Assembly (NCBI RefSeq): GCF_057098645.1
Contig: NZ_CM169472.1
Reading direction: 5' to 3' (one strand)
Length of the DNA: 64,000 nt
This document shows, in pieces, positions 3,396-58,017 of this stretch. Position 1 is the stretch's first letter; every line of letters starts with the position of its first letter. Both the position numbers and the translations under genes were made by a program. The notes under the pieces were generated by a model. The model was not told the DNA's origin. It saw only the letters and a list, made by a program, of their open reading frames with translations, and searched no databases.

Positions 3396-4688
3396 ATGAA
3401 GCAGGCATTACGAGTAGCATTTGGTTTTCTCATACTGTGGGCATCAGTTCTGCATGCTGAAGTCCGCATTGTGATCGACAGCGGTGTAGATTCCGGTCGT
3501 CCTATTGGAGTTGTTCCTTTCCAGTGGGCGGGCCCTGGTGCGGCACCTGAAGATATTGGCGGCATCGTTGCTGCCGACTTGCGTAACAGCGGTAAATTTA
3601 ATCCGTTAGATCGCGCTCGTCTGCCACAGCAGCCGGGTAGTGCGCAGGAAGTACAACCAGCTGCATGGTCCGCGCTGGGCATTGACGCTGTAGTTGTCGG
3701 TCAGGTCACTCCGAATCCGGATGGTTCTTACAATGTTGCTTATCAACTTGTTGACACTGGCGGCGCACCGGGTACTGTACTTGCTCAGAACTCGTACAAA
3801 GTGAACAAGCAGTGGCTGCGTTATGCTGGTCATACCGCCAGTGATGAAGTGTTTGAAAAACTGACCGGTATTAAAGGTGCGTTCCGTACCCGTATTGCCT
3901 ACGTTGTTCAGACCAACGGCGGTCAGTTCCCGTATGAACTGCGCGTATCTGACTATGACGGTTACAACCAGTTTGTCGTTCACCGTTCACCACAGCCGCT
4001 GATGTCCCCGGCGTGGTCACCAGACGGTTCTAAACTGGCTTATGTGACCTTCGAAAGCGGTCGTTCCGCGCTGGTTATCCAAACGCTGGCAAACGGCGCT
4101 GTACGTCAGGTGGCTTCATTCCCGCGTCACAACGGTGCGCCTGCATTCTCGCCAGACGGCAGCAAACTGGCATTCGCCTTGTCGAAAACCGGTAGCCTGA
4201 ACCTGTACGTAATGGATTTGGCTTCTGGCCAGATCCGCCAGGTGACTGATGGTCGCAGTAACAATACCGAACCGACCTGGTTCCCGGACAGCCAGAACCT
4301 GGCATTTACTTCTGACCAGGCCGGTCGTCCACAGGTTTATAAAGTGAATATCAACGGCGGTGCGCCACAACGTATTACCTGGGAAGGTTCGCAGAACCAG
4401 GATGCGGATGTCAGCAGCGACGGTAAATTTATGGTAATGGTCAGCTCCAACGGTGGGCAGCAGCACATTGCCAAACAAGATCTGGCAACGGGAGGCGTAC
4501 AAGTTCTGTCGTCCACGTTCCTGGATGAAACGCCAAGTCTGGCACCTAACGGCACTATGGTAATCTACAGCTCTTCTCAGGGGATGGGATCCGTGCTGAA
4601 TTTGGTTTCTACAGATGGGCGTTTCAAAGCGCGTCTTCCGGCAACTGATGGACAGGTCAAATTCCCTGCCTGGTCGCCGTATCTGTGA
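3396..4688 (+). CDS. tolB: TolB periplasmic beta-propeller protein
   Basis: [21 protein letters not shown] signal peptide; 430 aa from the second ATG of the ORF. Confidence 0.95.
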
Positions 4689-4698
4689 TAATAATTAA

Positions 4699-5244
<546 letters not shown>

Positions 5245-5253
5245 GAGAATTGC

Positions 5254-6045
5254 ATGAGCAGTAACTTCAGACATCAACTATTGAGTCTGTCGTTACTGGT
5301 TGGTATAGCGGCCCCCTGGGCCGCTTTTGCTCAGGCACCAATCAGTAGTGTCGGCTCAGGCTCGGTCGAAGACCGCGTCACTCAACTTGAGCGTATTTCT
5401 AATGCTCACAGCCAGCTTTTAACCCAACTCCAGCAACAACTCTCTGATAATCAATCCGATATTGATTCCCTGCGTGGTCAGATTCAGGAAAATCAGTATC
5501 AACTGAATCAGGTCGTGGAGCGGCAAAAGCAGATCCTGTTGCAGATCGACAGCCTCAGCAGCGGTGGTGCAGCGGCGCAATCAACCAGCGGTGATCAAAG
5601 CGGTGCGGCGGCATCAACGACGCCGACAGCTGATGCTGGTACTGCGAATGCTGGCGCGCCGGTGAAAAGCGGTGATGCAAACACGGATTACAATGCAGCT
5701 ATTGCGCTGGTGCAGGATAAATCCCGCCAGGATGACGCAATGGTGGCATTTCAGAATTTCATCAAAAATTACCCTGATTCAACTTACCTGCCAAACGCCA
5801 ATTATTGGCTGGGTCAGTTAAACTACAACAAGGGTAAAAAAGATGATGCGGCGTACTATTTTGCTTCGGTAGTGAAAAACTATCCGAAGTCACCAAAGGC
5901 TGCAGATGCGATGTTTAAAGTCGGCGTCATCATGCAGGACAAAGGTGACACCGCAAAAGCGAAAGCCGTATACCAGCAGGTTATCAGTAAATACCCTGGT
6001 ACTGATGGCGCTAAACAGGCGCAAAAACGTCTGAACGCGATGTAA
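5254..6045 (+). CDS. cpoB: CpoB (YbgF), TPR-containing cell-division coordinator
   Basis: 263 aa, signal peptide, coiled-coil then TPR-like C-terminus; last gene of tol-pal. Confidence 0.9.
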   Translation: MSSNFRHQLLSLSLLVGIAAPWAAFAQAPISSVGSGSVEDRVTQLERISNAHSQLLTQLQQQLSDNQSDIDSLRGQIQENQYQLNQVVERQKQILLQIDSLSSGGAAAQSTSGDQSGAAASTTPTADAGTANAGAPVKSGDANTDYNAAIALVQDKSRQDDAMVAFQNFIKNYPDSTYLPNANYWLGQLNYNKGKKDDAAYYFASVVKNYPKSPKAADAMFKVGVIMQDKGDTAKAKAVYQQVISKYPGTDGAKQAQKRLNAM

Positions 6046-6209
6046 TGCATAACACACGACCAGAAGTCGCATTATTTCTGGTCGTGTCGTGCGAATCATA
6101 AGCAGTTGAGTGATCTACATCGAAATTTTTGTTGCGCTCAAGTCTGAAATCAGTAATATATGCCGCCGTTGCCACGGGATATCAAACAAACCGAAAGCAA
6201 CGAAAAAGT

Positions 6210-6285
6210 GGGTCGTTAGCTCAGTTGGTAGAGCAGTTGACTTTTAATCAATTGGTCGCAGGTTCGAATCCTGCACGACCCACCA
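6210..6285 (+). tRNA. lysT: tRNA-Lys (anticodon UUU)
   Basis: GGGTCGTTAGCTCAGTTGGTAGAGCAGTTGACTTTTAATCAATTGGTCGCAGGTTCGAATCCTGCACGACCCACCA; cloverleaf with encoded CCA. Confidence 0.9.
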
Positions 6286-6320
6286 CTAACCTAGTTAGTT
6301 GTAGTATCCAGCGTAGTATC

Positions 6321-6396
6321 GGGTGATTAGCTCAGCTGGGAGAGCACCTCCCTTACAAGGAGGGGGTCGGCGGTTCGATCCCGTCATCACCCACCA
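6321..6396 (+). tRNA. valT: tRNA-Val (anticodon UAC)
   Basis: GGGTGATTAGCTCAGCTGGGAGAGCACCTCCCTTACAAGGAGGGGGTCGGCGGTTCGATCCCGTCATCACCCACCA. Confidence 0.9.
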
Positions 6397-6398
6397 CC

Positions 6399-6474
6399 GG
6401 GTCGTTAGCTCAGTTGGTAGAGCAGTTGACTTTTAATCAATTGGTCGCAGGTTCGAATCCTGCACGACCCACCA
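6399..6474 (+). tRNA. lysW: tRNA-Lys (UUU)
   Basis: Identical 76-nt tRNA-Lys unit, 2 nt after valT. Confidence 0.9.
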
Positions 6475-6525
6475 CTAATTACGGTGGGTTCGGTGGAAGT
6501 AGTTTGTAGTATCCAGCGCAGTATC

Positions 6526-6601
6526 GGGTGATTAGCTCAGCTGGGAGAGCACCTCCCTTACAAGGAGGGGGTCGGCGGTTCGATCCCGTCATCACCCACC
6601 A
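6526..6601 (+). tRNA. valZ: tRNA-Val (UAC)
   Basis: Identical 76-nt tRNA-Val unit. Confidence 0.9.
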
Positions 6602-6604
6602 CTC

Positions 6605-6680
6605 GGGTCGTTAGCTCAGTTGGTAGAGCAGTTGACTTTTAATCAATTGGTCGCAGGTTCGAATCCTGCACGACCCACCA
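6605..6680 (+). tRNA. lysY: tRNA-Lys (UUU)
   Basis: Identical 76-nt tRNA-Lys unit. Confidence 0.9.
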
Positions 6681-6733
6681 ATTTTAACATCAAACTCAGA
6701 TGTTAAGCGTGAAGGATAACGTTGCGCCAGCAA

Positions 6734-6778
6734 CGGCCCGTAGGGCGAGCGAAGCGAGTCATCCTGCACGACCCACCA
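6734..6778 (+). repeat. tRNA-Lys 3-prime-end remnant repeat, copy 1
   Basis: CGGCCCGTAGGGCGAGCGAAGCGAGTCATCCTGCACGACCCACCA ends in the last 17 nt of tRNA-Lys; near-identical copy at 7123..7166. Confidence 0.6.
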
Positions 6779-6826
6779 ATCTTAAAGATTGGCCCCGAGT
6801 AAAAATCTTTCAGGTAACACCCGTAT

Positions 6827-6902
6827 GGGTCGTTAGCTCAGTTGGTAGAGCAGTTGACTTTTAATCAATTGGTCGCAGGTTCGAATCCTGCACGACCCAC
6901 CA
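6827..6902 (+). tRNA. lysZ: tRNA-Lys (UUU)
   Basis: Identical 76-nt tRNA-Lys unit. Confidence 0.9.
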
Positions 6903-6935
6903 TCCTGAATGATTAAAGCAGCATAATCCCGCAAG

Positions 6936-7011
6936 GGGTCGTTAGCTCAGTTGGTAGAGCAGTTGACTTTTAATCAATTGGTCGCAGGTTCGAATCCTGC
7001 ACGACCCACCA
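6936..7011 (+). tRNA. lysQ: tRNA-Lys (UUU)
   Basis: Identical 76-nt tRNA-Lys unit, last of the array. Confidence 0.9.
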
Positions 7012-32625: not shown

Positions 32626-33696
32626 TTATTTGATTTCAATTTTGTCCCACTCCCTGCCTCTGTCATCACGATACTGTGATGCCATGGTGTCCGACTTATG
32701 CCCGAGAAGATGTTGAGCAAACTTATCGCTTATCTGCTTCTCATAGAGTCTTGCAGACAAACTGCGCAACTCGTGAAAGGTAGGCGGATCCCCTTCGAAG
32801 GAAAGACCTGATGCTTTTCGTGCGCGCATAAAATACCTTGATACTGTGCCGGATGAAAGCGGTTCACGACGAGTAGATGCAATTATGGTTTCTCCGCCAA
32901 GAATCTCTTTGCATTTATCAAGTGTTTCCTTCATTGATATCCCGAGAGCATCAACATGCAATGTTGTAGGGATGGCAATTTTTACGCCTGTTTTGCTTTG
33001 TTCGACATAAAGATATCCATCTACGATATCAGACCACTTCATTTCGCATAAATCACCAACTCGCTGCCCGGTAACAACAGCCAGTTCCATTGCAAGTCTG
33101 AGCCAACATGGTGATGATTCTGCTGCTTGATAAATTTTCAGGTATTCGTCAGCCGTAAGTCTTGATCTCCTTACCTCTGATTTTGCTGCGCGAGTGGCAG
33201 CGACCGGGTTTGTTGTTATATGGCCTTCAGCTATTGCCTCTCGGAATGCATCGCTCAGTGTTGATCTGATTAACTTGGCTGACGCCGCCTTGCCCTCGTC
33301 TATGTATCCATTGAGCATTGCCGCAATTTCTTTTGTGGTGATGTCTTCAAGTGGAGCATCAGGCAGCCCCCTCCTTATTGCTTTAATTTTGCTCATGTAA
33401 TTTATGAGTGTCTTCTGCTTGATTCCTCTGCTGGCGAGGATTTTTTCGTAGCGATCAAGCCATGAATGTAACGTAACAGAATTATCACTGTTGATTCTCG
33501 CTGTCAGAGGCTTGTGTTTGTGTCCTGAAAATAACTCAATATTGGCCTGTATTGCTTCAGTGATTGCTATCCTCCTGTCTCGGCCTAAACCAAACTCTTT
33601 ACCCGTCCTTGGGTCCCTGTAGCAGTAATATCCATTGTTTCTTATATAAAGGTTAGGGGGTAAATCCCGGCGCTCATGACTTCGCCTTCTTCCCAT
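32626..33696 (-). CDS. int: Lambda integrase
   Basis: 356 aa, MGRRRSHERRDLPPNLYIRNNGYYCYRDPRTGKEFGLGRDRRIAITEAIQ..., matches recalled lambda Int. Confidence 0.97.
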   Translation of the reverse strand: MGRRRSHERRDLPPNLYIRNNGYYCYRDPRTGKEFGLGRDRRIAITEAIQANIELFSGHKHKPLTARINSDNSVTLHSWLDRYEKILASRGIKQKTLINYMSKIKAIRRGLPDAPLEDITTKEIAAMLNGYIDEGKAASAKLIRSTLSDAFREAIAEGHITTNPVAATRAAKSEVRRSRLTADEYLKIYQAAESSPCWLRLAMELAVVTGQRVGDLCEMKWSDIVDGYLYVEQSKTGVKIAIPTTLHVDALGISMKETLDKCKEILGGETIIASTRREPLSSGTVSRYFMRARKASGLSFEGDPPTFHELRSLSARLYEKQISDKFAQHLLGHKSDTMASQYRDDRGREWDKIEIK

Positions 33697-37577: not shown

Positions 37578-37994
37578 TTATACCTCTGAATCAATATCAA
37601 CCTGATGGTGAGCAATGGTTTCAACCATGTACCGGATGTGTTCTGCCATGCGCTCCTGAAACTCAACATCGTCATCAAACGCACGGGTAATGGCTTTTTT
37701 GCTGGCCCCGTGGCGTTGCAAATGACCGATGCATAGCGATTCAAACAGGTGCTGGGGCAGGCCTTTTTCCATGTCGTCTGCCAGTTCTGCCTCTTTCTCT
37801 TCACGGGCTATCTGCTGGTAGTGACGCGCCCAGCTCTGAGCCTCAAGACGATCCTGAATGTAATAAGCGTTCATGGCCGAACTCCTGAAATAGCTGTGAA
37901 AATATCGCCCGCGAAATGCCGGGCTGATTAGGAAAACAGGAAAGGGGGTTAGTGAATGCTTTTGCTTGATCTCAGTTTCAGTATTAATATCCAT
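37578..37994 (-). CDS. gam: Lambda Gam (RecBCD inhibitor)
   Basis: 138 aa, [61 protein letters not shown]... Confidence 0.95.
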
Positions 37995-38854: not shown

Positions 38855-39736
38855 TTATGACCACTTTTTGTTTGGGTTTCGTTGGTGAGCGTGGTTTACA
38901 GGATTATTTGATATACCCCATAACTCTGACTCGCTTATCTCTACACGAGAGAAAGACCTGCTTTCTTTCAGTTCTTTTATAAACCTAGAACCTAAGATGA
39001 CATCTATTGTACCAGAAAGTTCTTGTAAAAGATCTTTGTTTTTTCTGAGGAAGAAAATATCTTCTTTATATTTAATTTTTACATAGAATTTATTCTGTAT
39101 TTTTAATATATCAAAGCATGGCAGATATCTATATCCCTCATATTTTCGCCACTGCTTAACAATTATAACATCTTTTTCATTTACTGCATTAATCAGCCCA
39201 AGACCAAGTACAGGTATGAATATTCTATTGTCTGCCGAAAGCGTACAATTATCACCACCAGGCAAATATGTATAAATCATGTCGGAATTTTTATACGCAT
39301 CAACGAATGCACGTAAGAAGCGTACATATTTTTGCCATCCGTTTATACCGAATTTACCATATAAGTATTCTTTATTTGTTAGAAGAAAACTATTTGTATC
39401 AGGATCCTTATCTACAGACCTGTCGATAAGATCTCCAACTACGTTTACAAAGTCAAAGACAGAGTTTAATAAGAACAATTGTCTTTCAGTAGGGCGAATT
39501 TCAATTATGTAGCCAGGATGAAGACGATATTGCATCTGCTTACGAAGTATACCGAACGCTTGGGTCCGAGCATCTGAAAGCAACTTCTTGTCGCCATCGC
39601 CGTGAGCATTGTTTCTAATAAAACTGATATAATTTGCTAATTTTTCAGCCTCTTTTTTGTGTTTTTTTCGCTCTGATGCTGAGTCTATTGGTTTTGGTAT
39701 GGACTTGTAATCAATCTTCTTCATTACGTACCTCAT
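38855..39736 (-). CDS. Uncharacterised 293-aa protein translationally coupled to N (lambda ral/sieB slot)
   Basis: Start ATG overlaps the N stop (ATGA), visibly AT-rich, lambda ral/sieB absent at this position; no motif I can assign. Confidence 0.6.
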   Translation of the reverse strand: MRYVMKKIDYKSIPKPIDSASERKKHKKEAEKLANYISFIRNNAHGDGDKKLLSDARTQAFGILRKQMQYRLHPGYIIEIRPTERQLFLLNSVFDFVNVVGDLIDRSVDKDPDTNSFLLTNKEYLYGKFGINGWQKYVRFLRAFVDAYKNSDMIYTYLPGGDNCTLSADNRIFIPVLGLGLINAVNEKDVIIVKQWRKYEGYRYLPCFDILKIQNKFYVKIKYKEDIFFLRKNKDLLQELSGTIDVILGSRFIKELKESRSFSRVEISESELWGISNNPVNHAHQRNPNKKWS

Positions 39737-40408: not shown

Positions 40409-41454
<1,046 letters not shown>

Positions 41455-41473
41455 TTATTTACCCCCAATCTTC

Positions 41474-41532
41474 ACAAGAAAAACTGTATTTGACAAACAA
41501 GATACATTGTATGAAAATACAAGAAAGTTTGT
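41474..41532. promoter_or_regulatory. 434-type right operators OR3-OR2-OR1 with pRM/pR
   Basis: ACAAGAAAAACTGT (41474-41487), ACAAGATACATTGT (41497-41510), ACAAGAAAGTTTGT (41519-41532). Confidence 0.8.
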
Positions 41533-41545
41533 TGATGGAGGCGAT

Positions 41546-41575
41546 ATGCAAACTCTTTCTGAACGCCTCAAGAAG
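41546..41575 (+). pseudogene. cro: 434-type cro truncated after codon 10 by an IS insertion
   Basis: ATG CAA ACT CTT TCT GAA CGC CTC AAG AAG (MQTLSERLKK) runs directly into the IS terminal repeat TGAACCGCCCC. Confidence 0.75.
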
Positions 41576-41617
41576 TGAACCGCCCCGGGTTTCCTGGAGA
41601 GTATTTTATCTGTGAAC

Positions 41618-42508
41618 TCAGGCTGCCAGATCATTATTTCCGATGGAAGCATAATAAGCTTTTTCTGCTTCTGCCGGAGGAATATGGCCCAGCCTTTCCA
41701 GCAATCGTCGATTGTTATACCAGTCCACCCACGTGAGTGTGGCCAGTTCCACTTCTGCACGGTTTTTCCAGCTCTTACGGTGTATTACCTCCGCTTTGTA
41801 AAGACCATTGATGCTCTCCGCCATCGCGTTGTCATACGAGTCGCCAGTACTCCCTGTTGATGCCAGTAATCCGGCTTCCTTAAGCCGCTGCGTGTAGGCC
41901 AGCGATACATACTGAGAACCTTTATCACTGTGATGGATTGTGCCGGACGGCCGACGGGCCCACAACGCCTGCTCCAGTGCATCCAGCACGAATGTTGTTT
42001 CCATGGATGATGAGACCTGCCATCCCACGATGTATCCGGCGAACACATCAATGATGAACGCCACATAAACGAAGCCCCGCCATGTGCTGACGTAAGTAAA
42101 ATCAGCCACCCACAGCTGGTCAGGTCGTTCTGCCACGAACTGACGGTTTACGCGGTCGCCTGCGGCAACGGCTTTCCGGCTGATGGTCGTACGGACCTTT
42201 TTACCCCGGAGAACACCGGCAAGTCCCATAACTGCCATGAGACGTGCCACAGTGCATCTGGCCACTCTGATACCTTCCCGTAACAACTGACGCCAGACTT
42301 TACGCACACCGTATACCTGGTGATTTTCATCGTATACGCGCTGTATCTCTTTCTTCAGCCAGTCATCGTGCTGCGCACGGGCACTGCGTTTATCCGGATG
42401 ATGTCGCTGTTGCTGACAGTGGTAATACGTTGACGGGGCAATATGCAGTTCGCTGCATAGCGGTCCGACCCCGTACTGCTCACGCAGCTTATCCAGCAGT
42501 GGCATCAT
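41618..42508 (-). CDS. IS629-like transposase OrfB (DDE/integrase domain)
   Basis: 296-aa ORF with IS3-family DDE region ([10 protein letters not shown]...[11 protein letters not shown]). Confidence 0.85.
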
Positions 42509-42831
42509 TTTTTCCAGAGGCGGTCGAACTCCGCCTTCGCAAAATAAGCGGAAGCCTGGCGAAGGATATCGTTACTGCGGCGCAGTTCACGATTTTCACG
42601 CTCCAGCTCTTTCAGACGCTGACGTTCAGCGGTGGTGAGCCCGCCATCACCGCCCCCGGTATCCCGCTCATGCTGGCGAACCCAGACACGCAGAGTCTCC
42701 GGCGTACAGCCAATCTTTGGAGCAATGGAACAAATTGTCGCCCATTGTGAGTCATATTCATCCTGACTTTCCAGAACCATACGAATCGCCCGCTGACGGA
42801 CTTCGGGGGAAAAACGAGTATTTTTAGTCAT
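42505..42831 (-). CDS. IS629-like transposase OrfA (HTH)
   Basis: 108 aa, [50 protein letters not shown]... Confidence 0.85.
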
Positions 42832-42885
42832 CCTGTTTACCTCTTTCTCAGGGAGTTTAGTCTCCAGGATTTCCGGGGCGGTTCA

Positions 42886-43265
42886 ACCAGCCAGAAAACG
42901 ACCTTTCTGTGGTGAAACCTGATGCTGCATGGGGGACAGCAGAAGACCTGACCGCCGCAGAGTGGATGTTTGACATGGTGAAGACTATCGCGCCATCAGC
43001 CAGAAAACCGAATTTTGCAGGGTGGGCTAACGATATCCGCCTGATGCGTGAACGTGACGGACGTAACCACCGCGATATGTGTGTGCTGTTCCGCTGGGCC
43101 TGCCAGGACAACTTCTGGTCCGGTAATGTGCTGAGCCCGGCCAAACTCCGCGACAAGTGGACCCAGCTCGAAATCAACCGTAACAAGCAACAGGCAGTCG
43201 TGACAGCCAGCAAACCAAAACTCGACCTGACAAACACAGACTGGATTTACGGGGTGGATTTATGA
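42886..43265 (+). pseudogene. O: Lambda O replication initiator, C-terminal fragment only
   Basis: ...WGTAEDLTAAEWMFDMVKTIAPSARKPNFAGWANDIRLMRERDGRNHRDMCVLFRW...TDWIYGVDL; begins at the IS boundary. Confidence 0.8.
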
Positions 43266-43963
43266 AAAACATCGCCGCACAGATGGTTAACTTTGACCGT
43301 GAGCAGATGCGTCGGATCGCCAACAACATGCCGGAACAGTACGACGAAAAGCCTCAGGTACAGCAGGTAGCGCAGATCATCAACGGTGTGTTCAGCCAGT
43401 TACTGGCAACTTTCCCGGCGAGCCTGGCTAACCGTGACCAGAACGAACTGAACGAAATCCGCCGCCAGTGGGTTCTGGCTTTCCGGGAAAACGGGATCAC
43501 CACAATGGAACAGGTTAACGCAGGAATGCGCGTAGCCCGTCGGCAGAATCGACCATTTCTGCCATCACCCGGGCAGTTTGTTGCATGGTGCCGGGAAGAA
43601 GCATCCGTTATCGCCGGACTGCCAAACGTCAGCGAGCTGGTTGATATGGTTTACGAGTATTGCCGGAAGCGAGGCCTGTATCCGGATGCGGAGTCTTATC
43701 CGTGGAAATCAAACGCGCACTACTGGCTGGTTACCAACCTGTATCAGAACATGCGGGCCAATGCGCTTACTGATGCGGAATTACGGCGCAAGGCTGCCGA
43801 TGAACTGTCCTGTATGACCGCACGAATTAACCGTGGTGAGGCTATACCTGAACCAGTAAAACAACTTCCTGTCATGGGCGGTAGACCTCTAAATCGTGCA
43901 CAGGCTCTGGCGAAGATCGCAGAAATCAAAGCTAAGTTTGGGCTGAAAGGAGCAAGTGTATGA
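43262..43963 (+). CDS. P: Lambda P (DnaB helicase loader)
   Basis: 233 aa, MKNIAAQMVNFDREQMRRIANNMPEQYDEKPQVQQVAQIINGVFSQLLATFPASLANRDQNELNEIRRQW... Confidence 0.95.
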   Translation: MKNIAAQMVNFDREQMRRIANNMPEQYDEKPQVQQVAQIINGVFSQLLATFPASLANRDQNELNEIRRQWVLAFRENGITTMEQVNAGMRVARRQNRPFLPSPGQFVAWCREEASVIAGLPNVSELVDMVYEYCRKRGLYPDAESYPWKSNAHYWLVTNLYQNMRANALTDAELRRKAADELSCMTARINRGEAIPEPVKQLPVMGGRPLNRAQALAKIAEIKAKFGLKGASV

Positions 43964-47111: not shown

Positions 47112-48071
47112 TTAAAAAAAGAAGGTGATTGCTCCATTTATAAATGAATAGTCATCCCCTGTCTTGAATTCTGATGTTACTTTATTAAATGCTAGTGTGA
47201 AGGCTACAGGTGCATACCCAATTGTTGCGCCAACTTGATATTCATCAACAGTTTTGTTTAGCGATACTGTTGTTTGTTTCGTCTGTATTGTTTTTCCTTC
47301 GAGAGTATAGTTGCGATTGACATCTCGTCTTTCCATACCTGCAAAAATCTTGTATTTGAATCCGCTTGTATCGGACATATGCATTAAACCACGGGGAGCC
47401 AGCAGACCAAAGCCATTATCCGAATTGAAGGTTTTATCATTACCAATGGCAATGGTTGCGCCATATGCTACATATTGAAATAAGTTTCCAGTAACAGCAG
47501 AAACTTCAGGGTATAATCCAACATTAGCACCTAAAATATCCATACTTGGTGTCATGGATAGCATCCCTTTTACAGTATAACCGTAGCGATTCTCTATTTG
47601 ATCATCCCATGCATGATATTTTTCTGCCCCAATAATCTCATGAGCTTTATTTTGTACTTTCTGACCGCCTGCGTCGGGGCCAACAACACCTATGTCAGTA
47701 CCTAATCGATAGCGAATCCAGTCATTCGCAAGGGAGTTCCATTCAATACCAGTGTGAGTGTATGCACTAAAAGCTCTGTCTCCAGTTACAGCTGTGTTGT
47801 GTCTTTTATTACTGCCTGATGGAGAGTAAATATCTTGCGCAATATGGAGAGATAATTGGCTCGAGTCTGAGATATCGTGGCTATATCCCAGAAATAAGCC
47901 TTGTGAGTAATCATCTCTGTTTTCATGTTTATTGCCATAAATATCATTAAGTATTGGTTGAAACTTCCCTGCATCATCATTTGCTAATGATAATGCAAGG
48001 CTGTTCGCGATAGCTGAACACGTGGTAAATGACAGAGCAATAAAGACGCCAGCGATGACACTTTTTTTCAT
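47112..48071 (-). CDS. Outer-membrane beta-barrel protein, LpxR (lipid A 3-prime-O-deacylase)-like by length and architecture
   Basis: 319 aa, signal peptide MKKSVIAGVFIALSFTTCSAIA, C-terminal aromatic residues (ITFFF); visibly AT-rich with a long AT-rich upstream region. Confidence 0.45.
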   Translation of the reverse strand: MKKSVIAGVFIALSFTTCSAIANSLALSLANDDAGKFQPILNDIYGNKHENRDDYSQGLFLGYSHDISDSSQLSLHIAQDIYSPSGSNKRHNTAVTGDRAFSAYTHTGIEWNSLANDWIRYRLGTDIGVVGPDAGGQKVQNKAHEIIGAEKYHAWDDQIENRYGYTVKGMLSMTPSMDILGANVGLYPEVSAVTGNLFQYVAYGATIAIGNDKTFNSDNGFGLLAPRGLMHMSDTSGFKYKIFAGMERRDVNRNYTLEGKTIQTKQTTVSLNKTVDEYQVGATIGYAPVAFTLAFNKVTSEFKTGDDYSFINGAITFFF

Positions 48072-50706: not shown

Positions 50707-52556
50707 ATGTCGATTAAACATTACGATGTTGTCAGGGCGGCGTCGCCGTCAGACCTTGCGGAAAAGCTGACACACAAACTGAAAGAGGGCTGGCAGCCAT
50801 ACGGCGGACCGGTTGCCATTACGCCGTACACACTGATGCAGGCGGTGGCTATTGAAGGAGAGCCACAGGTCGGCCCTTCATCTGAGCCGGATTGGTACTA
50901 CGTCATCGTACTGGCCGGGCAGTCCAATGCCATGGCTTACGGTGAAGGGCTTCCGCTGCCGGATTCATACGATGCTCCGGATCCGCGCATTAAACAGCTG
51001 GCGCGCCGCAGTACAGTGACGCCGGGCGGGGCTGCCTGCAGATATAACGATATTATTCCGGCTGACCACTGTCTGCATGATGTGCAGGATATGAGTACGC
51101 TGAATCATCCGAGGGCTGACCTGAGCAAAGGGCAGTACGGCTGTGTCGGTCAGGGTTTACATATTGCCAAAAAACTGCTCCCGTATATCCCGAATAACGC
51201 GGGGATCCTGCTGGTACCATGCTGTCGTGGTGGTTCGGCATTTACCCAGGGCGCGGAGGGGACATTCAGCGAGTCCACGGGGGCCAGTCAGGATTCGGCA
51301 CGCTGGGGGTGGGCAAGCCGTTATATCAGGATCTGATTTCCCGCACAAAAGCGGCATTGCAGAAAAATCCCAAAAACGTTCTGCTGGCCGTCTGCTGGAT
51401 GCAGGGTGAGTTTGACATGAGCGCCGCCACCCACGCACAGCAACCTGCGCTGTTTACAGCCATGCTGACACAGTTTCGTGCTGACCTCTCCGTGTTTAAC
51501 GCGCAGTGCCATGGTGGCAGTGCTGCAGATGTGCCGTGGATTTGTGGTGACACGACGTATTACTGGAAAAATACATACGCTACCCAGTACGACACCGTGT
51601 ACGGCGGGTATAAAAACAGGGAGAGTGAGGGCGTTTATTTTGTGCCCTTCATGACAGACGGTAACGGCGTCAATACCGCCACTAACGCGCCGGCAGAAGA
51701 TCCGGATATTCCGGCATCAGGATATTACGGTGCGGCATCGAGAACGAATGGAAACCAGGTATCATCAAACCGCCCGACACATTTCAGTTCATGGGCGCGC
51801 AGGAGCATTATTCCGGATCGTCTGGCAACCGCTATTCTGAACGCAGCCGGGCGCACCTCAGCCTTCATCAGTGGTAAGGCACCGGAAATCAAACCCTCGC
51901 CCGGCGGCAACACGCCATCGGGTCCGTCTGCAGATACGTCCGTTCGCACAATCTCCCTGCTGCCGGCAGCCGGAGAGGCTGCTGCGCAGGGCTGGAGCAT
52001 TAAGGATGGCGGAATTCAGTTGTCAGATGGTGTATTTAAGATCACCAAGCAGAGCAATAAAACCTGGTCCCTGACGCATCCGGTGGATGACGCAATTACC
52101 CTGCTGACACAGGGCGGCAGACTGACCTGTAAGTTCCGCCTGTCAGGCGCACTGACCAACAATCAGTTCGGGCTGGGGATTTATCTGTATACGGATGCTC
52201 CCGTTCCTGATGGTGTGGCGATGACGGGTACCGGTAATCCGTTCCTGATGTCGTACTTCACTCAGACCACTGACGGCAGAGTGAATCTGATGCATCACAG
52301 GAAAGCCGGAAACACGAAGCTGGGGGAGTTCGGCGATTACGGTAACGACTGGCAGACGCTGGAGCTGGTGTTCACCGCCGGCAGTGCCACGGTTACTCCG
52401 AAACTGAATGGAGTGGCTGGCCCGGCATTCCAGGTTATAAAAGACAGTCTGACACTGGGACTGAATGCGCTGACGCTGACGGATGTTACAAAAAATGCAG
52501 CGTATGGCGTTGAGATAGAAAGTCTGATGCTGGAGATAAATGCACCGGCAGCATAA
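50707..52556 (+). pseudogene. Prophage sialate O-acetylesterase-like (NanS-p family) gene, split by a frameshift at a G5 run
   Basis: N-terminal esterase half (GQSN motif) in ORF 50707..51336 and C-terminal half in ORF 51219..52556; the frames meet at the G-run near 51281-51285. Confidence 0.6.
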
Positions 52557-52728: not shown

Positions 52729-53756
<1,028 letters not shown>

Positions 53757-53760
<4 letters not shown>

Positions 53761-54197
53761 TGCCACTGCTGGATAAGCTGCGTGAGCAGTACGGGGTCGG
53801 ACCGCTATGCAGCGAACTGCATATTGCCCCGTCAACGTATTACCACTGTCAGCAACAGCGACATCATCCGGATAAACGCAGTGCCCGTGCGCAGCGCGAT
53901 GACTGGCTGAAGAAAGAGATACAGCGCGTATACGATGAAAATCACAAGGTATACGGTGTGCGTAAAGTCTGGCGTCAGTTGTTACGGGAAGGTATCAGAG
54001 TGGCCAGATGCACTGTGGCACGTCTCATGGCGGTTATGGGACTTGCCGGTGTTCTCCGGGGTAAAAAGGTCCGTACGACCATCAGCCGGAAAGCCGTTGC
54101 CGCAGGCGACCGCGTAAACCGTCAGTTCGTGGCAGAACGACCTGACCAGCTGTGGGTGGCTGATTTTACTTACGTCAGCACATGGCAGGGCTTCGTG
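53757..54197 (+). pseudogene. IS629-like OrfB, N-terminal part (copy 2), interrupted by IS21-family insertion
   Basis: Matches copy-1 OrfB up to ...[14 protein letters not shown], then reads into the foreign element. Confidence 0.8.
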
Positions 54198-54294
54198 CGT
54201 ATTCCGCTCTATTCGATCACGGATTGGCATCGAAGTCCGATCAGCGATTCGCATCCATTCGATCAACCGGGAACTTAACTTTTTCTACCGCTTT

Positions 54295-55050
54295 TTAACG
54301 CGTTTTTTCGCTGCTTTCCACTACCGGGGGATTTTTCCTCAGTGACTCTCCCTGAAGGACCACTCGGTGTGAGTTATGTACCAGTCTGTCCAGGATGGCA
54401 TCTGCTGTTGTTGGGTTCTCCATCAGACCATGCCATTTATCTACCGGGAACTGGCTTACCACTATCGTGCTGCTTTGTCCGTAACGATCCTCTATGAGCT
54501 CCAGAAGGTCATTACACTGGGCGTTACTTAACTGTTCCAGCCCCAGATCGTCCAGGATTAGAACCTGTATTTTTTGCAACTGTTTCAGATATTTCAGCCA
54601 GCTGCCATCAACACGTCCCTGAGCCAGTTGTTCCAGTAATCGCCCGGTTCTACAGTACCGGACGCTGTGTTTCTGTCGACATGCCTGTTCGCCCAGCGCA
54701 TTGGCTATCCAGCTCTTGCCACATCCTGTCGGACCGGTTATCAGCAGGTTTTTCCTGTGGGTTATGTAGTGGCCGTTCAGCAGTTCTCTCATCTGTTCAG
54801 CCCGCAGACCTCTTGAGGCCGGATAGCGCAGCCCTTCCGGTGTTGCCTGGTATTTCAGGCCGGCATTTTTTCTCAACCGTGCCACACGGCTGTTTTCCCT
54901 GCTCAGAAGCTCGTCATCAACCAGCAGCGTCAGCCTTTCCTCGAACGACAGTTCGTCGTAGGTCTGAGGCGTTTCCCGCTGCCGTATCAGGCTCCCGGCC
55001 ATCGCCGGGAGTTTCAGTTGGGTCAGTTTGTTTAACAGGTTATCACTCAT
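54295..55050 (-). CDS. istB: IstB-like ATPase helper of IS21-family transposition
   Basis: Walker A GPTGCGKS; start taken at MSDNLLNKLTQLKLP within the longer ORF. Confidence 0.8.
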   Translation of the reverse strand: MSDNLLNKLTQLKLPAMAGSLIRQRETPQTYDELSFEERLTLLVDDELLSRENSRVARLRKNAGLKYQATPEGLRYPASRGLRAEQMRELLNGHYITHRKNLLITGPTGCGKSWIANALGEQACRQKHSVRYCRTGRLLEQLAQGRVDGSWLKYLKQLQKIQVLILDDLGLEQLSNAQCNDLLELIEDRYGQSSTIVVSQFPVDKWHGLMENPTTADAILDRLVHNSHRVVLQGESLRKNPPVVESSEKTR

Positions 55051-55066
55051 ACTGTTGTTCCTTCTG

Positions 55067-56602
55067 TCAGTGGTAGTAGCCCGGACCACGCAGGTTTTCA
55101 TGCTCTGAAGCATATGCCGGATGTTGTTCGCCCTGGCGGGATAATGGAAGCTCCAGGTTCTCCCGATGGTGACGCAGCAGATTGTCGATAAAGCGTCTGT
55201 CAGGGGCGTTATAGTGCAGGGCAACGTAACAGGCCTTTTCCAGCCGTTCCGGGCCGTATTTTTTCTGAAGTGCCAGCAGCCCCAGAACTGCACGATAAGC
55301 CAGTTCCGGATGGGGTTTTGCCTTCAGCATGGATTCAACCACCCGGCCTGTGGACGGGCCCGTACGTTTTCCCTGCTCGATCAGGCGTTCCGGTGTCCAT
55401 GTCCCGTGCTGCCGGTGGCGCTCTGGCATGTGAAGCGGATTGGTTGTGTGTTTATATTCATGTGTGCTGCGCGGATGTTGCGCCACACACTGCCCCTTGT
55501 GCCAGAGCTGTACCACCGACTGCCCCGCCTTCAGTGACAGACGCTGACCGACCAGTTCGTGTGGAACGGAGTACCAGTGACGGGCATATTCAACGTGGTA
55601 GTCAGGGCCAACCTTCACAGCTTTGTATTCCGTGTATTCATAAGGTGCCAGAGGCAGCGGAGAGAGTGCTGGCGCATCCAGTATGCGGAAGCGTTCTGCA
55701 CGGGTTTGATTGCCGTACCCCTTCATTGGCCGGTTATTCATGTCTGTCAGTAACTCCCTAAGGCGCGCATTCAGCGCCCTGAGCGTGTGGAAGGTTTCAT
55801 TACGGATGCGGGCAAGAAGCCATCGTTCAACGATGAGGACGCCGTTTTCTGCTTTTGGTTTATCTTTAGGTTTGCGTGGTCGGGCCGGGATGATAACCGT
55901 GCCATAGTGCTCAGCCAGTGCCTGATAACTGTCGTTGATGACAGGCTCATATCGATCGGCCTTTTTCACTGCGCTTCTGAGGTTATCGGGGATGAGCAGC
56001 TTCGGTACGCCGCCCAGGAAGGTCAGGCAACGGCTGTGGGCATTTAACCATGACATCATGTCCTGACCTTCGCACGCTTCAACGTAGGTATAGTTGGACG
56101 CCCCCATTACGGCCACGAAGATTGCCACGCGGCGTATCTCACCGGTGTCCGGATTAATAACAGGAACCGTAGGACCACAGAAGTCGATAAAAAGCTTTTC
56201 GCCGGCACGATGCTCCTGGCGCATGGAGAGACGTCGCGTTTTTTTCCACTCCCGGTAGCAACGGCAGAAGTGCGAGTATCCCATCGCTTTGTTACCCGCC
56301 TGTGCCTTGTATTCCATCCACAACAGTTGCCGCGTCACACCTGGTTTTCTCATTTCCGTATCGAAGTACAACATGTCAGGCATTACAAGCTCTGATGCAA
56401 AGGTGTCTTTGGGCGGAAAAATGAGTTTCTCCAGCGTGTCATGGGATATATCAGCAGGTAATGGCCATGACAGAGAAGAGGCTTTGAAGCGGGCAAGAAC
56501 CTCAAAAACGGTTGAGGCGCTGATGTGTAACGTCAGTCCGATACAACGGTTAGTCAGCTTCTTGTCGAACTTGAGCTGAAGGATCTTAAAACAGGTTTCC
56601 AT
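55067..56602 (-). CDS. istA: IstA-like IS21-family transposase; start uncertain
   Basis: Long ORF with N-terminal HTH and DDE-type core, ends 16 nt upstream of istB. Confidence 0.7.
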   Translation of the reverse strand: METCFKILQLKFDKKLTNRCIGLTLHISASTVFEVLARFKASSLSWPLPADISHDTLEKLIFPPKDTFASELVMPDMLYFDTEMRKPGVTRQLLWMEYKAQAGNKAMGYSHFCRCYREWKKTRRLSMRQEHRAGEKLFIDFCGPTVPVINPDTGEIRRVAIFVAVMGASNYTYVEACEGQDMMSWLNAHSRCLTFLGGVPKLLIPDNLRSAVKKADRYEPVINDSYQALAEHYGTVIIPARPRKPKDKPKAENGVLIVERWLLARIRNETFHTLRALNARLRELLTDMNNRPMKGYGNQTRAERFRILDAPALSPLPLAPYEYTEYKAVKVGPDYHVEYARHWYSVPHELVGQRLSLKAGQSVVQLWHKGQCVAQHPRSTHEYKHTTNPLHMPERHRQHGTWTPERLIEQGKRTGPSTGRVVESMLKAKPHPELAYRAVLGLLALQKKYGPERLEKACYVALHYNAPDRRFIDNLLRHHRENLELPLSRQGEQHPAYASEHENLRGPGYYH

Positions 56603-56742
56603 AGTGCTCCTGGATTTTCTCTTTCTGGACATTGACGTCTCCACTGGTTTAAACACGGCAATGGAGACTGTGGTGAAAAGAGTTAATTCCCGGAGTGACT
56701 GGCAGGATGCCAATCAATGATCGGAAGCATGCCAAATCGTGA

Positions 56743-57291
<549 letters not shown>

Positions 57292-57303
57292 GTTCACAGA
57301 TAA

Positions 57304-58017
<714 letters not shown>

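Follow-up and report, generated by a model that had tools for sequence, protein, structure and literature searches.

IS629 accounts for many of the gene inactivations and deletions recorded in EHEC O157, and the deletions that adjoin it can be as short as a few bases or exceed 40 kb, according to two sources (PMC9943667; bioRxiv 10.1101/2023.06.07.543989) that summarise Ooka et al. 2009 and Kusumoto et al. 2011. The same sources set out a model of "sloppy strand transfer", in which a cleaved IS end joins a site other than the opposite end. Deletions that start from the inverted repeat, vary in length, and in some cases leave the IS fully preserved have also been obtained with an IS3 reporter, without IEE (Kanai et al. 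2022, PMC8860574).

Here, we analysed a 64-kb stretch of DNA (hereafter, the window) in which an IS629-family element lies between the first codons of cro and the last part of O in a lambdoid prophage. The locus resembles the IS629 deletions of EHEC, as described in the sources cited above, in the element family, the host group, a deletion edge set exactly at an IS terminus, the missing target-site duplication, and the type of target, a lambdoid prophage. It differs from the IEE-dependent IS629 events studied there, in which the IS is usually excised together with neighbouring DNA, whereas the IS of the window was retained complete. In the work of Kanai et al. (2022, PMC8860574), moreover, an engineered IS3 was followed on a plasmid reporter, whereas the element here is an IS629 in a chromosomal prophage. 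We conclude that this is a real IS629-associated deletion, made in situ in the early-right operon of a lambda-like imm434 prophage beside ybhC, and we give this reading a probability of about 0.88.

The prophage and its sibling prophages

The window starts in the chromosome, with a cluster of Lys and Val tRNA genes at 6.2–7.0 kb followed by ybhJ and ybhC. The ybhC-side end of the prophage carries the integrase gene (32626–33696, minus strand) with the excisionase gene next to it; both assignments come from the annotation of a 100%-identical stretch of RM12761. Because the integrase gene adjoins ybhC, we place the prophage in the lambda attachment region. The annotation of this identical stretch also shows int, xis, exo, bet, kil, cIII, and N as intact genes. 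RefSeq flags a frameshift in gam there, which we did not count as a defect because the window has an open, 98-codon short-form gam at 37578–37874. The far end of the prophage lies beyond the 64-kb window.

Over the 13.6 kb that precede the IS, identity is 100.0% with E. coli O145:H28 RM12761/RM13516 and 99.0% with many other strains. Within the prophage, the comparable part of the left flank (2.9–3.8 kb next to the IS) shows 99.9–100% identity with RM12761, Trh52, and C7. For the right flank, identity is 99.9% with Trh52 (9.8 kb), C7 (4.0 kb), and C325 (10.5 kb). Both flanks lie in the order and orientation seen in the intact siblings. The source strain is very close to EHEC O145:H28.

The junctions of the IS with cro and O

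To the left of the IS, the prophage has an intact cI repressor gene of the 434 immunity type (40810–41442, minus strand; 210 aa), which encodes a helix-turn-helix (HTH) domain and a LexA-like C-terminal domain. Residues 2–70 are identical to the N-terminal domain of the 434 repressor at 69 of 69 positions (PDB comparison), and the C-terminal half matches lambda cI and LexA. Between cI and cro lies a right operator region (41474–41532), which we read from the sequence as OR3 (41474–41487), OR2 (41497–41510), and OR1 (41519–41532), taking the 14-bp ACAA...TTGT-type consensus to identify the three 434-type operators. It is accompanied by promoter-like hexamer pairs for a PR-like site at 41490–41518 (plus strand) and a PRM-like site at 41535–41506 (minus strand), and it is the same as in the sibling prophages.

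The cro remnant starts with an ATG at 41546 and keeps codons 1–10 (MQTLSERLKK; 41546–41575, plus strand). The terminal repeat of the IS, TGAACCGCCCCGGG, begins at 41576, so that the first three bases of the element (41576–41578) provide the TGA that closes the cro frame (ORF 41414–41578). The junction reads TCTGAACGCCTCAAGAAG in cro followed directly by TGAACCGCC in the IS. The ten codons are identical to those of the sibling cro, which, being intact, could be compared over its full length and is identical to the 434 Cro chain at 71 of 71 positions (PDB). Hence, three 14-bp operators are flanked by a cI and a cro of 434 specificity, as in the immunity region of phage 434.

On the other side of the IS, the sequence resumes within a lambda-type O gene, of which only the C-terminal domain is left (42886–43265, plus strand). 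The remnant starts at the second base of codon 168 of 299 and runs to the stop at 43265; tblastn likewise places O residues 168–299 at 42886–43265. Read from 42886, it gives QPENDLSVVKPDAAWGTAEDL...TDWIYGVDL, and the O frame past the IS reads QPENDLSVVKPDAA...TDWIYGVDL before the stop. The string that marks this junction is IS-ACCAGCCAG. The N-terminal domain TIGR01610, found at residues 23–115 of the sibling O, is absent from the remnant, which also lacks, in frame, 18 bp that lambda and Trh52 have (IQSGSK). The gene for replication protein P overlaps the end of O and is intact (43262–43963, plus strand; 233 aa). Its product is identical to the P proteins of Trh52 and C325 and differs from that of lambda at four residues.

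An earlier, sequence-only reading of this DNA had described the same two junctions: a 434-type cro of ten codons that runs into an IS, and an O that resumes in its C-terminal part directly before an intact P. Both descriptions hold to the base, and the comparisons with the PDB chains make the 434 label exact.

A complete IS629-family element without target-site duplication

The element between the two junctions is complete (41576–42885; 1,310 bp), with its transposase genes on the minus strand, its right inverted repeat (IRR) on the cro side, and its left inverted repeat (IRL) on the O side. The first gene, orfA (42505–42831, minus strand; 108 aa), overlaps orfB (41618–42508, minus strand; 296 aa) at 42505–42508. 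A frameshift pseudoknot of the ALIL type spans 42434–42550 (120 bits, with a gathering score of 50), and orfB matches the IS3-family transposase model NF033516 (316.8 bits, with a cut-off of 160). The 25-bp ends of the element are TGAACCGCCCCGGGTTTCCTGGAGA and TGAACCGCCCCGGAAATCCTGGAGA. A search of the window with the pattern of the terminal repeats, for which the chance expectation is 0, returned only both ends of each of two IS copies. The length of about 1.3 kb, the imperfect TG...CA inverted repeats, the orfA/orfB arrangement, the −1 frameshift signal, and the DDE transposase place the element in the IS629 group of the IS3 family.

The flanks of this copy are AAG on the left and ACC on the right, and thus lack the 3-bp direct repeat of a simple insertion. 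This bears on the history of the copy, not on the type of element, and we attribute it to the associated deletion. The second copy (53380–57333, plus strand) has a clean duplication (GCT/GCT), and the contrast between the two copies, already drawn in the sequence-only reading, is confirmed. Copy 2 is split by an IS21-family element, and without this insert it is identical, base for base, to the copy of RM12761. The two copies lie inverted relative to each other. We considered an inversion between them and rejected it because copy 2 has kept its duplication and the genes run collinear with those of the siblings.

The IS at 41576–42885 is 96.4–98.4% identical to copies that RefSeq annotates as IS3-family or IS1203; the value for copies labelled "IS3-like element IS1203 family" is 96.4%, all these names being RefSeq labels. 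We take IS629 and IS1203 to be iso-forms. The best full-length match, out of about 31,000 places in 5,426 complete E. coli genomes, is 98.4% identical. The element is a mosaic, in which O103/C7-like patches alternate with patches of the subtype shared by copy 2 and RM12761, with at least four switches between them. All the IS629 copies that we compared are mosaics of each other, and the pattern may be old. When the window IS was tested as a simple hybrid of two parents, it proved to be a multi-patch mosaic like the other copies. Its own unique combination hints at exchange between copies and is not evidence of a single crossover.

Size and content of the missing segment

In Trh52 (O84:H7), the region is uninterrupted and carries cI, cro, cII, O, and P. 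When both flanks of the window IS were aligned to it, the left one ended at CTCAAGAAG, the right one began at ACCAGCC, and exactly 1,133 bp lay between them. The match coordinates give the same spacing in FHI_NMBU_03, Z1323HEC0016, EC20017429, and CEC12044, i.e., in five complete genomes with Trh52. The missing 1,133 bp comprise codons 11–71 of cro, boxA and boxB of nutR, the tR1 spacer, all of cII, and codons 1–167 of O with the first base of codon 168; they also span the four iterons of ori and its AT-rich region. The identity of the segment to lambda, taken from just past cro, is 97.7%, and the right endpoint of the deletion falls at about lambda position 39187, past iteron 4 (which ends at 39118). 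A functional lambda-type replication module has an iteron-binding O domain, four iterons, and an AT-rich region, and this prophage lacks it, with P intact.

We searched the 64-kb window for the missing segment with blastn, which gave no match beyond the two remnants, and for Cro, CII, and O with tblastn, which found nothing but the cro and O remnants. The sequence-only reading had proposed that cII, nutR/tR1, and the replication origin were lost, and the 1,133-bp gap relative to an intact sibling at the same attachment site substantiates this. The alignment to a reference that it had suggested also gives the deletion its size, and the cII and N-terminal part of O that might have lain elsewhere in the prophage do not do so within the window. 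The IS is thus complete, with precise termini and without duplication, and its flanks are collinear with an intact reference that carries extra DNA exactly between them, which is the pattern of an IS-adjacent deletion.

How the deletion may have arisen

In the scenario that we favour, a single IS629-family element would first have entered the cro–O interval, and the 1,133 bp that separate one of its ends from a second point would then have been lost, which would leave the IS complete, with precise termini and without duplication. We judge that the most likely step, at about even odds, is a transposase-driven one-ended ("sloppy") strand transfer from an IS end into nearby DNA. The sequence-only reading placed the insertion in cro, but an entry in O followed by a leftward deletion is as likely, and related prophages show several independent IS629 hits in O/ori. 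A simple insertion would be marked by IS-AAGAGGCGAATT if it was in cro, and by GAATCCTCTGACC followed by TGAACCGCC if it was in O. Such an intermediate, i.e., an IS with a duplication at either junction, is absent from 5,426 complete E. coli genomes, GTDB representative genomes, and metagenome contigs, and neither of the window junctions (cro-IS and IS-O) was found in these three collections. The order of events and the sub-mechanism proposed here are therefore provisional.

The main competitor concerns the mechanistic step only and leads to the same end product and consequences: cro and O would each have received, independently, an IS629 copy with its own 3-bp duplication, both in the same orientation, and homologous recombination between the two would have dropped the 1,133 bp together with one copy. 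Deletions are known to arise by recombination between IS copies (PMC8860574), and simple IS629 insertions are known inside the missing interval (in the nutR–tR1 spacer of C7/C3 and at iteron 1 in strain 2571). The window IS is, moreover, a unique mosaic of the O103/C7-like and copy 2/RM12761 subtypes, a patchwork that fits exchange between copies, by recombination or gene conversion, no less well than an event involving a single copy. A single crossover is, however, expected to leave one switch instead of the four or more that we count, the pattern may be old since all compared IS629 copies are mosaic, and neither of the single-insertion intermediates was present in any collection searched (the 5,426 E. 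coli genomes, the GTDB representatives, and the metagenome contigs). We therefore regard recombination between two copies as a tentative alternative, somewhat less probable than one-ended transfer from a single IS.

Three other explanations would deny that the IS produced a deletion at this place, and we find all of them hard to credit. If the assembly had collapsed into one two direct IS629 copies that flanked the 1,133 bp, the outcome would be exactly AAG-IS-ACC, and a chimeric consensus IS might explain the unique mosaic; IS629 is a high-copy repeat of 1.3 kb, and it is the commonest of the 124 and 89 IS elements of two O145:H28 genomes (Cooper et al.). Against this, a three-deep nest of IS elements is resolved in the window and copy 2 without its IS21-family insert equals the copy of RM12761, which together argue for a finished assembly. 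The reading frames and the frameshift signal of the IS are intact, and comparable deletions were assembled independently in RM12761/RM13516 and in C325, all of which makes a collapse very improbable. Even less probable is that the IS is the joint between two different prophages, which would have provided an imm434 left arm with an IS in cro and, from another lambdoid phage, a right arm with an IS in O. EHEC genomes do hold many lambdoid prophages with IS629 copies, and RM12761 also has an IS-O'-P arrangement at a distant locus (3.32 Mb, 97.8% identity). We rejected this match as an inter-prophage joint because both arms of the window prophage match the same sibling prophages equally well (99.9–100%). 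The arms are also contiguous at the same site in five genomes, exactly the missing 1,133 bp apart, and the duplication retained by copy 2 argues against an inversion between the inverted copies. The least credible order of events has the deletion first, by slippage or illegitimate recombination independent of any IS, and the IS later, exactly at the scar. It has nothing specific in its favour, it requires a positional coincidence to the single base, and a later simple insertion should have given a 3-bp duplication, as in copy 2, C7, and 2571, whereas none is present here.

Independent IS629 events in related prophages

Several related prophages have IS629 in the same region. Simple insertions are found in C7/C3, in the nutR–tR1 spacer of the cro–cII interval (with a 3-bp duplication, AAC, in C7), and in the O157:H7 strain 2571, at the first iteron of ori (with an ATC duplication). 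In RM12761/RM13516, an IS629-family element without duplication accompanies a deletion that starts at O codon 77 and reaches to the last 69 bp of the gene. In C325, another one without duplication accompanies a loss that begins just past xis and ends within O, 24 bp upstream of the window junction. These last two resemble the window prophage in their 99.9–100% identity, in the IS without duplication, and in a deletion endpoint within O, but they differ from it in the opposite orientation of the IS, in the IS subtype, and in the endpoints. On the sequence evidence, the deletions of RM12761/RM13516 and C325 are events independent of that of the window. C325 and the window have two features in common, namely the O allele that lacks 18 bp in frame and an IS3-family insertion that separates the esterase and holin genes; on these grounds, we regard the two prophages as close relatives with separate IS629 deletions.

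Among the 5,426 complete E. coli genomes, an IS629 end lies no more than about 600 bp from this O segment in ten. By our rough estimate, made with approximate IS629 copy numbers, ten such genomes are not above what the IS density of EHEC prophages would lead one to expect. We therefore find no support for an insertion hot-spot in O/ori, and the recurrence may simply follow from the high density of IS629 in EHEC prophages. We also set aside a match in the O111:H8 strain 8E to 24 bp of the cro-IS junction; it lies in an unrelated HTH gene of a different prophage, and the likeness of the flank is due to chance.

The five independent events between cro and O/ori of this one widespread imm434 prophage (C7/C3, O157 strain 2571, RM12761/RM13516, C325, and the window) might nevertheless be other than random decay and reflect an insertion preference of IS629 or domestication by selection, together with transposase readout toward cI, which we think rather unlikely. 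In terms of preference, IS629 could favour the bent, AT-rich DNA of ori-lambda. In terms of selection, hosts could keep the repressor, immunity, and the SOS-inducible PL operon (Red/Kil) while replication and Cro are disabled; if true, this would be a convergent route of "domestication". In the window, the transposase gene of the IS reads toward cI and could give a PRE-like transcription of the repressor that replaces the lost input of PRE and cII.

Expected consequences and significance

Our expectations for the function of this prophage all come from established lambda biology. It would be unable to start its own replication, having lost ori and retaining an O without its iteron-binding half, and the O of another phage could not rescue replication because ori acts in cis. 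Neither Cro nor CII would be made. With nutR lost and PR directed into the IS, antisense to the transposase, transcription toward P, nin, and Q should be poorly antiterminated and the expression of these genes weak. The 434-type immunity should persist, with cI, PRM, and the operators untouched. SOS should still derepress PL (N, kil, gam/bet/exo, and xis/int), without Cro to turn it down. Both SOS derepression and excision would be possible, given an intact int, xis, N, and PL operon and a full-length cI with its LexA-like domain. The sequence-only reading had concluded that the prophage was "locked in lysogeny", which is probably too strong.

We presume that, in its unchecked derepression of PL without phage growth, the window prophage resembles the cI+ cro-deleted defective lambda prophages of the laboratory. 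The lambda prophages used for recombineering (cI857, with a cro-bioA deletion) likewise keep cI, PL, N, kil, gam, bet, and exo and have neither cro nor the replication functions. The window prophage differs from them in being natural and made by an IS, and in having 434 immunity and a repressor of the SOS-cleavable type. It also retains P, nin, Q, and late genes, unlike the recombineering prophages, and has further IS damage. Among natural prophages, defective ones of EHEC can excise and be complemented by co-resident phages (PMC2669165).

The prophage is best annotated as replication-defective, with cro as a 10-codon stub, O as a C-terminal fragment, and no ori. The deletion event appears private to the source genome, and the two IS junctions provide a private, base-exact marker of the source lineage. 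IS629-linked deletions in EHEC prophages are already well documented, and this deletion is one more case of an ordinary form of prophage decay in pathogenic E. coli, which opens no new question alone. What is mildly interesting is the recurrence, across lineages, of independent IS629 events in the same replication region.

Recurrent IS629-family events between cro and O

The cro–O interval of this prophage has been hit by independent IS629-family insertions or deletions in other lineages, namely C7/C3, O157 2571, O145:H28 RM12761/RM13516, and C325. In the corresponding loci, extracted from E. coli genomes that carry the same prophage, the elements occupy positions 4015–5324 (L001), 4762–6071 (L002), 4494–5803 (L003), and 5665–6974 (L006). 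Three-bp duplications are present at two of these four events and absent from the other two. The C-terminal part of O that remains beside the element in the window also bears an 18-bp in-frame deletion (42929–42930), by which IQSGSK is missing relative to the O proteins of lambda and of Trh52, the uninterrupted sibling prophage. Strain C325 has the same deletion, which is thus older than the IS event and distinguishes a sub-lineage of the prophage.

The element itself (41576–42885) is a patchwork in which two common subtypes of IS629 alternate, and none of the 5,426 complete E. coli genomes searched has a full-length match to it above 98.4%. This mosaic appearance is general among IS629-family copies, each of which resembles a mix of others, suggesting that gene conversion between them is frequent.

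Other features of the prophage and its surroundings

A cargo gene for an LpxR-family lipid A deacylase (47112–48071, minus strand), found in all sibling prophages, separates the nin region from Q and runs opposite to the phage genes. A SASA-family (NanS-p-like) carbohydrate esterase is encoded at 50707–52556 in two overlapping reading frames; Trh52 has it as one gene of 1,851 bp, and the split in the window comes from a 1-bp indel between the two sequences. The esterase gene is separated from the lysis genes by a three-deep nest of insertion sequences (52729–57899). The outermost, an IS3-family element on the minus strand (orfA, 57552–57899; truncated orfB, 52729–53472), is interrupted by a second IS629 copy (53380–57333, GCT duplication), which itself contains an IS21-family element (54197–56834, flanked by CTTCGT) encoding IstA (548 aa) and IstB (332 aa). 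The chromosomal DNA of the window includes seven clustered tRNA genes (five Lys-UUU and two Val-UAC; 6210–7011) upstream of the gal/mod/ybh region.

Orientation of the element relative to cI and PR

The transposase gene of the element at 41576–42885 shares its strand with cI and points out of the element, across the 10-codon cro stub and the operators, towards cI (41576–41618 and 41442–41575). Judging purely from this orientation, transposase read-through could mimic PRE transcription, and a derepressed PR would produce antisense RNA against the transposase.
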